A model generated the notes under the pieces. It worked only from the letters and a program-made list of their open reading frames with translations. It ran no database searches and had not been told where the DNA came from. From NCBI GenBank assembly GCA_041500225.1, contig JBGQLV010000006.1:8271-72270 (forward strand): a DNA stretch of 64,000 bases. Direction: 5' to 3'. The position numbers and the translations under genes were made by a program. Positions 56,849 to 58,941 of this stretch are shown here, piece by piece (position 1 is the first letter of the stretch; each line of letters opens with the position of its first letter). This stretch comes from Thermodesulfovibrionia bacterium (GTDB lineage: Bacteria > Nitrospirota > Thermodesulfovibrionia > Thermodesulfovibrionales > SM23-35).

Positions 56849-56919
56849 GCAGATAACGTTTCAAGTGCTTGAGAAGGGCGTATCCTTTGGGTGTTAACCT
56901 CAAGCACTCTGTTATCTGC
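56849..56919. other. attC-like palindrome downstream of the DUF433/DUF5615 pair
   Basis: GCAGATAAC-7 nt-GTGCTTGAG-25 nt-CTCAAGCAC-3 nt-GTTATCTGC. Has ..AAC/GTT.. outer boxes and asymmetric internal loops. Confidence 0.4.
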
Positions 56920-56975
56920 CAATGCGGACATATATGATATAATCCATTTTTGATTTTTTAAAGTATTTTTAAAGG

Positions 56976-57338
56976 CTAATCATCTTTACCCCGAATGCGA
57001 ACTTTGGTTTCCTCCGTAATCCATAAGTGCTGGTTAAGAGGCTCTTGCTGAATAAGAGGAAGAATGCTTTGAAAAACTTTTATAACGTGCTGTTTTGCTT
57101 GACTACCAACTCTTAAAACAATAATCCCTGAAAACTCTTGTGGCGGATATGCTCTGATGTCTGAGAAATCTGTATCCAATGTAACCAGAACACGATTTTC
57201 ACTCTCGCATACATCTATAAGAATGGGGTCTCTTGCGCCTTGCAGTTGTTGCTCATTTACAGTTTTTGCATTATGTCCAGCATTAGTAAGCAGTTCTGCA
57301 ATCTCAATGGGCAGGTTTTCATCTATCTTAAACTGCAT
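56976..57338 (-). CDS. DUF5615-family PIN-like putative toxin
   Basis: MQFKIDENLP ... LVTLDTDFSDI, a pattern typical of Mut7-C/DUF5615 proteins paired with DUF433. Confidence 0.7.
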   Translation of the reverse strand: MQFKIDENLPIEIAELLTNAGHNAKTVNEQQLQGARDPILIDVCESENRVLVTLDTDFSDIRAYPPQEFSGIIVLRVGSQAKQHVIKVFQSILPLIQQEPLNQHLWITEETKVRIRGKDD

Positions 57339-57344
57339 ATTTAT

Positions 57345-57572
57345 CTATGCTGTCACAGATACCAGTCTTTCACGGGACAGTTCAGCCGCATAAGCAATAG
57401 CTGCCTTAATATCGTCGGGGACTATGGATGGGTAGCTCTTTAAAATTTCCTCTTCGCTGACCCCTTCTGCTAAATTGTCCAATATAACTGAAACCATAAC
57501 ACGCGTCCCTTTAATACAGGCTTTTCCATGACACACAAAGGGATCCACTGTTATTCTTTCTCTCCAGTTCAT
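57345..57572 (-). CDS. DUF433-family putative antitoxin
   Basis: ATG 57572 after [28 protein letters not shown] ... ILKSYPSI is the DUF433 signature. Lies 6 nt upstream of the DUF5615 gene. Confidence 0.7.
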
Positions 57573-57671
57573 GTCCCGCCTCCTTCCTTTTCTTTGTATA
57601 ATTGTATCATAAAGGGCGAAGCCTTTGGATGTAAATCTTTTAGCCTCTAAGAGCGGATGTATGACCAATTC

Positions 57672-57917
57672 TTAAGCAGTTACTAATTTTTCTTCACTTT
57701 GGATTATGATTTTGGGATTTGGATTTTTGGGAAGAATAGGTAACCCTTGTTCTTTAAGCAGATTAACATGTTCTATCATTCCCCACTTTGTTTTGTATAT
57801 GCAGTCCTCGATAGAAGGCCCGATACCAGAAAAACCTTTTAAGTCTGGCGAATAGAATCCAAAATAGTCTGGTTCTTCTGTTGCCTCAATTATTAAAGAA
57901 TATTCTAAATCTATCAT
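57672..57917 (-). CDS. HicB-like (UPF0150) antitoxin-family protein, no hicA seen
   Basis: YSLIIEATEEPDYFGFYSPDLKGFSGIGPSIEDCIYKTKWGMIEHV matches the HicB N-terminal fold pattern. RBS GAGGAGG. Confidence 0.65.
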   Translation of the reverse strand: MIDLEYSLIIEATEEPDYFGFYSPDLKGFSGIGPSIEDCIYKTKWGMIEHVNLLKEQGLPILPKNPNPKIIIQSEEKLVTA

Positions 57918-58094
57918 TTCTCAATCTACCTCCTCTAAAATTGGGCATATGTCGGCGCAAACACACCGTCGGCTCTGAATATTGGAGCGTCGCAAATCCG
58001 GTTGTTAAATGAAGCTTCTGGCATGTTTTAATTAAAACCGTCCCCTTTTCTTTTCCCTAAAAGTCAATAAACAAGTCTGACCCTCTTTTGCCTC

Positions 58095-58706
58095 TTAGGT
58101 CAAATAATCTTTGCCGTTAAATCTAGATATAATGGTTGGTTTTTTTGAGACAACTGAGTCGGCTATCATCCTACCAATCTCAGGATAATCAGTTTTTAAG
58201 ATATCTCTATATTTTCTCATGGATATGTTGCTGCGATTGGCTGGAGGTGCATTGTACATTCCTTTTAGAAATTCGCTTTCAAGCTCCACATCTGACAAAT
58301 TTCTTATTCTTTCTAGTTCAGCTTTAAAAGATTCGCGCATTTTAGATATACTGAGCAGGTAATCTATTTCCTCTCTAATCCATCGTGCTATGTCTGTCAT
58401 CATATGGAAAGCGCCCTCGAGATTAACGACAAAGGGTGTAAAATCTTTCTCCTGGCCTACTTTTTCTAATATTTCATTTCTTTTTAAAACCGTTAATACC
58501 TTGGCAAGGTCATTCTCTTTGGTGAACGGCAATGTTTCTGCTTCGGCAATTGTACCTGTCTTGTATTCGAGAAAGGGTATCTTTATTTTTACTTCGCCTC
58601 TGTTAATATCTTCTCTTAATTTTGTTAACGTCGTCAAATTACTGTTTATAACAATCTTAAGCATTTTTTCGTCAGTCCACACTGGTACCCATTTTATATC
58701 TGTCAT
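58095..58706 (-). CDS. hypothetical protein (203 aa)
   Basis: Clean ORF with an ATG start. No motif recognised. Lies between two attC-like sites. Confidence 0.5.
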   Translation of the reverse strand: MTDIKWVPVWTDEKMLKIVINSNLTTLTKLREDINRGEVKIKIPFLEYKTGTIAEAETLPFTKENDLAKVLTVLKRNEILEKVGQEKDFTPFVVNLEGAFHMMTDIARWIREEIDYLLSISKMRESFKAELERIRNLSDVELESEFLKGMYNAPPANRSNISMRKYRDILKTDYPEIGRMIADSVVSKKPTIISRFNGKDYLT

Positions 58707-58849
58707 CTTGCGAACCTCATATTAGAGCTTTCAAAACAGGGTTACAGGGTCAGGCTTGCTTATTGTCATTTGAATTCCAACAGAGGACAAAAAAAGGTAC
58801 AGGCTACTTTTTCTCATCCCTGTCCGTCCTTTTCGACCTTCCTCATTTC

Positions 58850-58941
58850 CGACAACATTTAAGCTTCTTTCTGAAGTCATATGATCAGAAGACGTGGGAG
58901 TATTGCGGAGAGGCGAGATTTCTGAAAGAAGCGAGTTGAAC
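58850..58941 (-). other. attC-like site downstream of vapBC
   Basis: Minus strand: GTTCAAC-TC-GCTTCTTTCAGAA ... TTCAGAAAGAAGC-TTAAAT-GTTGTCG. 13-bp stem with one mismatch. R'' begins 11 nt after the vapC stop. Confidence 0.55.

Follow-up and report, generated by a model that had tools for sequence, protein, structure and literature searches.

A candidate orphan array of mobile gene cassettes with integron-like but distinct end sites in a Thermodesulfovibrionia genome

The closest described systems to the locus reported here are sedentary chromosomal integrons and clusters of attC sites lacking integron integrases (CALINs), in which co-oriented, promoter-poor accessory genes (for toxin–antitoxin, defence or unknown functions) are followed, singly or as pairs, by an imperfect palindrome with AAC/GTT boxes, a stem kept in structure only and a variable loop. 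Junctions fall at G|TT, the start of a cassette complements its own end site, and orphan clusters lie away from any integrase. Integron integrases are defined by an IntI-specific additional domain (PMC9668308, citing Messier and Roy 2001), and published work holds that they shifted from double- to single-stranded DNA recombination by gaining the I2 α-helix (PMC7790495; PMC4792948). Here we describe part of a 64,000-nt stretch (the window) of a Thermodesulfovibrionia bacterium (GenBank assembly GCA_041500225.1, contig JBGQLV010000006.1, positions 8,271 to 72,270). Its interval at 56.83–59.70 kb, between an alkD-like gene and ybeY, appears to hold four mobile cassettes in an orphan array that has partly decayed and that belongs to an integron-like system distinct from the classical integron 13 kb away, a reading drawn from sequence comparison to which we assign a probability of roughly 0.7.

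The four cassettes would comprise vapBC, a 203-amino-acid (aa) open reading frame (ORF), a HicB-like gene and a DUF433–DUF5615 pair, each ending in a structured site of one superfamily with types that we call S1, S2 and S4. Such a site consists, in order, of a conserved leader (TGCCCGCAAC in S2 and S4), an AAC-ended box (GGCAGATAAC, TTCATTTAAC or GTTCAAC), a short 5′ spacer, a stem in which pairing alone is kept, a variable loop, a longer 3′ spacer (...GAAAC) and GTTA. Strand exchange would occur at or within GTTA, and the next ~17–20 bases (TTATCTGC-NNN-TTGCGGGCA) would belong to the following cassette and complement its own leader and box; in a circular cassette, both ends would form one long three-helix palindrome. 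The enzyme would be a tyrosine recombinase nearest to IntI and XerA but without the IntI-specific domain, placed in relatives at the head of the array, co-oriented with it and followed by an attI-like site ending ...GAAC-RA-G|TTA. The comparisons show the membership of the sites in families, their covariation and orientation, the complementarity of starts and ends, and linkage to and co-occurrence with the recombinase; from these we infer that recombination takes place at S sites and that this enzyme performs it, possibly on folded single-stranded DNA.

An initial annotation of this DNA had picked out two minus-strand palindromes as attC-like sites, and both are present as it described them. 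Site 1 (S1 type; 58854–58950, minus strand) reads AGCGGCTTC-GTTCAAC-TC, a 13-bp stem, a 46-nt loop, the returning stem, TTAAAT and G|TT. Its palindrome, GTTCAAC-TC-GCTTCTTTCAGAA...TTCAGAAAGAAGC-TTAAAT-GTTGTCG (58941–58850), begins 11 nt past the stop codon of a PIN-domain gene (58953–58955), and its stem contains one A/A mismatch. Site 2 (a full S2-type site; 56834–56931, minus strand) is built from the leader ATGTCCGCATT, the box GGCAGATAAC, AGA, a 9–10-bp stem, a mini-hairpin loop, the returning stem, TTGAAAC and G|TTATCTGC with a decayed outer arm; the palindrome, GCAGATAAC-3/7-GTGCTTGAG-25-CTCAAGCAC-7/3-GTTATCTGC (56849–56919), begins ~56 nt past the DUF5615 stop codon. It is the top match of R1, our covariance model of the S2 family (102.8 bits), and folds far better than its shuffles (DNA fold z = −5.1; an equally good fold in 1 of 200 shuffles).

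Two incomplete sites lie between these. A half S2 site (57597–57660, minus strand; R1, 19.3 bits) retains the left half and loop only and is fused at ...GCCCTT to the promoter region of the DUF433 gene, with an identical fusion point in G018:C58 (G and C numbers denote genomes and contigs, L numbers loci; G000 is the genome of the window). Directly after the 203-aa ORF, where the initial annotation had seen no site, we find a degenerate S4-type site (approximately 57940–58024, minus strand) with the leader ATGCCAGAAGC-TTCATTTAAC-AAC and a decayed 3′ half. The S4 type is characterized by the leader ATGCCCGAAAC-TTCATTTAAC-AAC followed by a long hairpin; further copies occur in G002, G003, G012 and G013 and, within the genome of the window, past a GmrSD gene (C20) and between TPR genes (C16). 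Altogether, the genome of the window carries ~14 S-type sites at ~8 loci.

Both main types are conserved well beyond this locus. Site 1 is conserved at 90–95% at five other loci in four genomes, compared with 72–82% for ybeY outside the genus of the window: copies are 95% identical on C16 of the same genome and 90–92% identical in G003 and G004, with a partial copy in G001 (94%). The five full S1 copies share the arrangement AGCGGCTTC-GTTCAAC-TC-stem-loop-stem-TTAAAT-GTT(R) in the orientation of the gene, and the homology of all five breaks right after TTAAATGTT(R), the sequences past the break being GTTGTCG, GTTAACC, GTTATCG, GTTAGCC and GTTAAAT. A variant in G007:C94 has an identical stem and an 8-nt loop. 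A rule for the outer arm of S1 was sought and could not be established; TTGTAACGAAAC, downstream of ybeY, was considered as a complement of the S1 leader and set aside, the similarity being weak and not significant.

The S2 family comprises ~50 elements found with R1 in 18 of the 41 genomes of the taxonomic family and in 6 of 150 other genomes of the phylum. Across 51 aligned copies the ends are conserved (5′ [A/T]TGCCCGCAAC-GNCAGATAAC; 3′ GAAAC-GTTA), and the bases of the 9-bp stem change freely with pairing kept, as in GTGCTTGAG/CTCAAGCAC, GGCTAAAAG/CTTTTGGCC, GTTGCAAAAG/CTTTTGCAAC, GGCGGAAAAG/CTTTTCCGCC and GTTGCATGTG/CACATGCAAC. Eight of the nine pairs have changed on both sides, and 95% of cells pair, versus 35–47% when the partner columns are slid, a count that leans towards structure in that the alignment had been fitted to R1.

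The elements are also placed and oriented as cassette ends. All 12 pairs of adjacent S2 elements within 3 kb are co-oriented, at spacings of 550–2900 nt; the gene upstream of S2 is co-oriented with it in 30 of 32 informative cases, and the element mostly starts 3–100 nt past the stop codon. S1, S4 and S2 occur together in co-oriented arrays on C16 and in the window. S arrays carry typical accessory cargo, including toxin–antitoxin pairs (PIN, ParE, HicAB and UPF0175), GmrSD, HEAT, TPR and SIR2-like proteins and genes of unknown function.

Further, the sequence past GTTA is non-random: TCTGC-NNN-TTGCGGGCA is the inverted complement of the leader. In arrays, the ~21 nt after one element correspond, in reverse complement, to the leader of the element that comes next and not to the leader of that element itself, and rare variants follow suit. 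On C15 (L014 1167, 3782), the flank GTTAGTTGCAATTGTGGGCG stands against GTTAGCTGCAGTTGTGGGTG as the reverse complement of the next leader; the corresponding sequences are GTTATCGGAGATTGTGGGCAT and GTTATCGGAAGTTGTGGGCAT in G010 (L035 1007, 2385), GTTAGCCGCTAATTGCAGGTA and GTTAGCCGCTATTGCAGGCAT in G013 (L039 2956, 2308), and GTTATCTGCTCACTGCGGGCG and GTTATCTGCTGCTGCGGGCAA in G007 (L041 151, 611). A score of at least 15 of 21 is reached in 4 of 17 consecutive pairs, versus 0.17% of 1758 non-consecutive control pairs (permutation P on means = 0.002). Such complementarity between start and end would be the signature of circularisable cassettes and would extend the first-bases rule known for the cassettes of integrons. 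S2 elements in relatives and the S1 homology break both fit a crossover at G|TT with a cassette start that complements its own site. Repetitive extragenic palindromes and miniature inverted-repeat transposable elements (MITEs), by contrast, are scattered in either orientation, whereas S elements combine strict orientation, arrays and start–end complementarity. Taken with the post-gene positions, these features bear out the proposal of the initial annotation that the alkD–ybeY interval is a cassette cluster.

A tyrosine recombinase accompanies these arrays. Several S arrays start 0.1–3 kb downstream of a co-oriented recombinase gene (for example, in G038:C33, G034:C17 and G034:C31) whose product of 364–437 aa has an N-terminal domain of ~100 aa, then SAM_4 and catalytic domains. 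This protein matches NF040815 (‘site-specific tyrosine recombinase/integron integrase’) with 241 bits, above the cut-off of 220, and TIGR02249 with 216 bits, below the cut-off of 265; it is without the IntI insertion (the additional domain) that the IntI of the window carries. By sequence, the solved structures nearest to it are those of the Vibrio integron integrase (PDB 2A3V, chain A) and archaeal XerA, and it coexists with a classical integron in one genome. Downstream of the gene lies a conserved, repeat-rich proximal site ending ...TGTGAAC-RA-G|TTA.... In G038:C33, the 22 nt past this site (GTTAGCCGTTCATTGCAGGCAT) match the S2 leader of the first cassette at 20 of 22 positions. In G160:C75, from a different family of the same order, housekeeping nuo genes are followed by the recombinase, by its proximal site (...GGATACAAACGAG|TTATCTGCTCATTGCGGGC) and by four S2-ended cassettes, whose cargo is a 193-aa ORF, ParDE, a helix-hairpin-helix protein and a two-gene unit; here, too, the flank before a leader of rare sequence (CTATCTGCAA) mirrors that variant.

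Sequence clusters of the recombinase family number at least 120 at ≥60% identity, and the sources named for them include Nitrospirota, WOR-3, Thermodesulfobacteriota and Acidobacteriota. In a hot-spring genome outside our phylum survey (a 2.4-Mb contig), two cassettes come after the recombinase, one with GmrSD and one with HicAB, and their starts agree with their end sites at ~20 of 23 positions; WOR-3 loci show recombinase-headed arrays with a like site logic, the sites having been read by eye, and an Acidobacteriota locus keeps the recombinase and the proximal site. Among the 41 family genomes, recombinase orthologs (intact or broken) and S2 occur together in 13, S2 alone in 5, the recombinase alone in 2 and neither in 21 (Fisher P = 4 × 10⁻⁵), although these genomes are related rather than independent, and p-values such as this overstate the evidence. 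All that is left of the recombinase in the genome of the window is fragments, on C20 and C42, each lying upstream of S2 elements; because of this, the array in the window is probably inactive or served in trans.

One shorter, Xer-like recombinase was dropped as a linked case: that of G001:C118 (L050 1–1932), which is just 49% identical to the array-head enzyme and shares its contig with a partial S1 copy at the contig start. The gene that follows it contains the motif HTWGQNL..HPHIH, which we take to be that of an IS91-type transposase.

The foremost alternative is that S sites are divergent attC sites and that the classical IntI encoded 13 kb away built and services the cluster, which would then be a CALIN. 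The genome does hold an intact IntI: intI lies at 42752–44281 on the plus strand (TIGR02249, 380 bits against the cut-off of 265), with its own cassettes at 38329–42620 and attC sites at 41655–41719, 40505–40569, 38720–38811 and 38329–38376. AAC...GTT boxes, co-oriented genes upstream, typical cassette cargo and an S1 break exactly at G|TT would all be expected of attC sites, and integrase-less attC clusters are common and can be acted on by IntI in trans (PMC9668308). The attC sites of the window integron, however, have a 7-nt box, spacers of 5–6 nt on both sides and a bulged L box, as in GTACAAC-CAGTC-GTTCAAAAGGGACGCGG...CGCCGCGTCCCTTAAC-TCATT-GTTGGAC. S sites lack bulged bases in their stems, reverse the spacer asymmetry and add an outer helix that is absent from classical attC sites. 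The asymmetry that the initial annotation had listed as a weakness is real, with internal loops of 2 × 6 (site 1) and 3 × 7 (site 2). Against the attC consensus boxes (R″ RYYYAAC; R′ GTTRRRY), GTTCAAC of site 1 fits and GTTGTCG fits GTTR only, pairing being limited to CAAC/GTTG; the boxes AGATAAC/GTTATCT of site 2 keep only AAC/GTT of the consensus, yet their pairing extends over 9 bp.

The training set of a second covariance model, R2, was 12 classical attC sites from relatives, each located beside intI, with the window contributing none. The four attC sites of the window integron, which had been held out, all rank among its six top matches, at 43 (38720–38811), 13.6, 13 and 11.4 bits (the three short sites ranking fourth to sixth), and R2 gives no match to site 1 or site 2 at E ≤ 10, with the caveat that R2 is home-made, is distinct from the model of IntegronFinder and is weak on short attC sites (11–14 bits). 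No S2 element is found in the 52 kb adjoining intI in 13 relatives, where most contigs end within 1–3 kb. Over the 41 family genomes, S2 and an IntI above the cut-off occur together in 11, S2 alone in 7, IntI alone in 8 and neither in 15 (Fisher P = 0.12, versus 4 × 10⁻⁵ for the other recombinase); counting IntI fragments as well brings out a weak association (P = 0.011). Of the attC-like label of the initial annotation, cassette-end sites of a recombination type therefore stand, and attC sites of an IntI integron do not: by model match, geometry and the recombinase that S2 tracks, S1 and S2 would seem to form a separate system, and we regard service by IntI as unlikely. The best R2 match in the window is a lone classical attC site at 1344–1435 on the plus strand (46.7 bits, E = 4 × 10⁻⁹), 37 kb from the cassette array of the integron, and a MITE-like element at 44460–44640 holds a GTCATTCCTGCGGAGGCAGGAATCC core within longer inverted repeats and has dozens of copies genome-wide at ~85–98% identity.

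A second alternative invokes transposon-like ‘mobile insertion cassettes’, units with inverted ends (GTTATCTGC...TTGCGGGCA and TGCCCGCAAC...CAGATAAC) that pile up side by side and are moved by a transposase encoded elsewhere. The complementary ends of the units look exactly like terminal inverted repeats, which also counts against cassettes, and many arrays have no recombinase nearby. Strict co-orientation, head-to-tail units with a covarying hairpin between their ends, half-sites (cassette starts only) directly past the recombinase-proximal site and the tight co-occurrence of the recombinase with the elements speak the other way, and no target-site duplications were seen; this explanation is quite unlikely. 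Least probable, and very unlikely in our view, are RNA-level elements (stabilisers of 3′ untranslated regions, terminators or processing sites) or repeats akin to repetitive extragenic palindromes that mark gene ends without recombination, which would suit elements lying shortly past the stop codons of co-oriented genes and stems whose covariation also fits RNA structure, but which match no Rfam family (a scan of the window interval and of the S1 unit on C16 returned nothing relevant) and leave unexplained the ~20-nt complement to the next leader 0.6–2.6 kb away, the recombinase-started arrays with the same G|TTA junction, the accessory cargo and the patchy cross-phylum spread.

Several observations weigh against our preferred reading, an array of cassettes mobilized by a separate recombinase. 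Site 1 folds no better than shuffles (DNA fold z = −0.5), which rules it out as a thermodynamically special hairpin; the folding of the strands that the initial annotation had suggested as a check singles out site 2 and not site 1. Inside the window, start–end complementarity fails for both sites, with nothing above background, as the annotation had already noted for the first-bases rule, and in the wider set the rule does not hold in 13 of the 17 consecutive pairs; part of these failures may stem from a small hairpin at the junction, intervening S1 or S4 sites or a degenerate element. One S2 element of the window is a half-site and its S4 copy is degenerate. Recombinase genes mostly lie at contig ends, and their linkage to arrays can consequently be viewed at fewer than ten loci. 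In a genus other than that of the window, a 5.9-kb island in G010 with three S2 cassettes is precisely missing in G042, which speaks for the cassette reading, yet its right end has no site; for that reason we treat this pair as an island insertion or deletion only and do not use the empty site as evidence of mechanism. The relatedness of the genomes and the limits of R2, given above, pull in the same direction.

The junction itself is occupied at many S sites by a hairpin of ~33–40 nt (GATA/GATG-stem-TCGCTTCGCTC-stem-GGGC), placed exactly at ...AAC|GTTA, at L040 (~5170–5205), L029 (~5500–5541), L028 (4430–4470) and L012 (~7780–7815) among others. Some S sites end in ‘GATA’ because this hairpin (GATA...TCGCTTCGCTC...GGGC) sits exactly at their junction, and it is also seen directly past some recombinase-proximal sites. 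One site, at G000:C68:7203–7295, has the S2 type when read on one strand and the S4 type when read on the opposite strand (TGCCCGCAAC-TGCAGATAAC ... GTTAAATGAAATTGCGGGCA), suggesting recombination between boxes of the two types. In four genomes, a conserved non-coding unit of ~200 nt with a promoter-like start lies 5′ of S1 (L012 5360–5705, that is, G000:C16; L031 1–210; L033 1730–1960); a 66-aa ORF within it has a 30-nt insertion in one copy, which argues against its reality, and the unit has no Rfam match. Copies of the recombinase gene, for their part, nearly all lie 50–700 nt from a contig end (L066–L073: G004:C246, G018:C76, G017:C142, C51, C18, G013:C530 and G044:C108), and the DNA downstream is evidently repetitive and breaks short-read assemblies.

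In the window, all genes from the alkD-like gene through ybeY are on the minus strand, and profile matches in Pfam and NCBIfam uphold the gene identities given by the initial annotation. On the upstream side of the array, the conserved flank is ybeY (59700–60146, minus; Pfam YbeY, 4.8 × 10⁻³⁵). Cassette 1 would hold an AbrB/MazE-like, vapB-type antitoxin gene (59326–59568, minus; PF04014, 1 × 10⁻⁸; TIGR01439, 4.9 × 10⁻¹¹) and a vapC-type PIN-domain toxin gene (58953–59420, minus; PF01850, 3.9 × 10⁻¹⁴), whose domain begins at ORF residue 30 and whose true start is probably near 59333. The 203-aa ORF of putative cassette 2 (58095–58706, minus) belongs to no family, with no match in Pfam or NCBIfam, and sits between 26-nt inverted repeats (58746–58771 and 58059–58084) that are 85% complementary. 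The 19-nt core of these repeats (CAATAAACAAGTCTGACCC) is spread over at least 12 contigs of the genome of the window and stands immediately 5′ of S2 or S4 leaders at five loci.

Cassette 3 would consist of an orphan HicB-like antitoxin gene of 81 aa (57672–57917, minus), which has paralogs on C26 and C15 at 85–86% DNA identity with weak matches to HicB_lk_antitox; a HicA gene precedes the C15 paralog, and the copy in the window is without a HicA partner. The presumed cassette 4 is a pair of the toxin–antitoxin type (56976–57572, minus), formed by DUF433 (57345–57572; PF04255, 3.9 × 10⁻²⁴) and a DUF5615/PIN-like gene (56976–57338; PF18480, 1.7 × 10⁻²³), and the whole DUF433–DUF5615–S2 module recurs at 91% in another context in G018:C58. 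Adjacent small toxin and antitoxin genes, as in type II systems, are thus found twice, as PIN with AbrB/MazE-like and as DUF5615/PIN-like with DUF433. On the downstream side, the flank is the alkD-like DNA alkylation repair gene (56088–56813, minus; PF08713, 8.3 × 10⁻⁶⁷), with no site after it and the convergent leuA only 24 nt away.

The content of this locus varies among relatives. ybeY and the end of leuA are conserved in 30 of 30 relatives and are not neighbours there, and homology with all 30 ends at 59721, ~20 nt inside the 3′ end of ybeY. G001, of the same genus as the window, is 93% identical across ybeY and has a convergent housekeeping gene ~200 nt past the end of homology; neither toxin–antitoxin genes nor S elements lie downstream of its ybeY. 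The initial annotation had held that unvaried genes in relatives would speak against an insertion, and the genes are missing here. The cluster is probably orphan and partly decayed because G001 has no array at ybeY and the recombinase is fragmentary. In G003 and G007, S elements lie 0.3–0.7 kb from ybeY, and pairs of arrays compared within genera g4 and g7 have only repeat elements in common. A promoter-like motif, TTCCTTGACAATAC...AATCAATAAT, is found downstream of ybeY in G001, G003, G007 and G013 (L049 ~5800–5860, L048 ~400–470, L033 ~1930–1990 and L020 ~1080–1130) and not in the window.

Taken more broadly, S arrays may represent a widespread, multi-phylum gene-capture system that is sister to integrons, with an IntI/XerA-related recombinase lacking the IntI-specific helix, a proximal site and three-helix, bulge-free attC-like palindromes, residing in the same genomes as classical integrons; we advance this tentatively, as a proposition somewhat short of even odds. 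A literature search, of incomplete coverage and so no proof of absence, found no description of such a system. If the proposal is true, the S system could represent the condition that gave rise to integron integrases, or it could have been invented in parallel, and natural folded attC-like sites together with a helix-less relative of IntI would make the transition from double- to single-stranded recombination directly testable. If the recombinase drives the arrays, integron-style capture would be independent of the IntI-specific helix and of the bulged bases of attC. Integron finders that require an IntI domain and an attC model may miss S arrays; here the recombinase falls below the cut-off of the integron-integrase model and both sites fail R2. 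The arrays carry toxin–antitoxin and defence genes (GmrSD, SIR2-like) in Nitrospirota, WOR-3 and a hot-spring genome, the instance in the window being a decayed orphan copy only.

Set beside the described systems, S arrays share with sedentary chromosomal integrons and CALINs the cargo, palindromes, junctions and orphan clusters with which we began. The parts of an S site parallel those of attC (R box, central spacer, L stem, variable loop), but S sites differ in finding no match with R2, in having no bulges, in a short 5′ and a long 3′ spacer and in an extra outer helix of ~9 bp; an S site contributes ~20 nt to the next cassette, compared with 6 nt in classical attC. The recombinase differs from integron integrases, as defined in PMC9668308, in being without the IntI-specific domain. 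Archaeal integrons (Ghaly et al. 2022, PMC9668308) resemble S arrays in having a proximal site right after the recombinase gene and in being mostly orphan arrays in fragmented metagenome-assembled genomes, but their integrases keep the additional domain of IntI and their sites are detected as attC. On the Xer side, Xer recombination in the CTX phage takes place on folded single-stranded DNA, with an Xer-type enzyme that has no IntI helix acting on a hairpin-formed site, a possible likeness to the S system. Finally, the dif modules of Acinetobacter (PMC7399989) likewise bracket toxin–antitoxin and accessory genes with recombinase sites, but a dif-type site is a double-stranded core of 28 bp, and successive sites alternate in orientation, whereas S sites are palindromes of ~100 nt, all co-oriented, with covarying stems and a dedicated recombinase at the head of the array.

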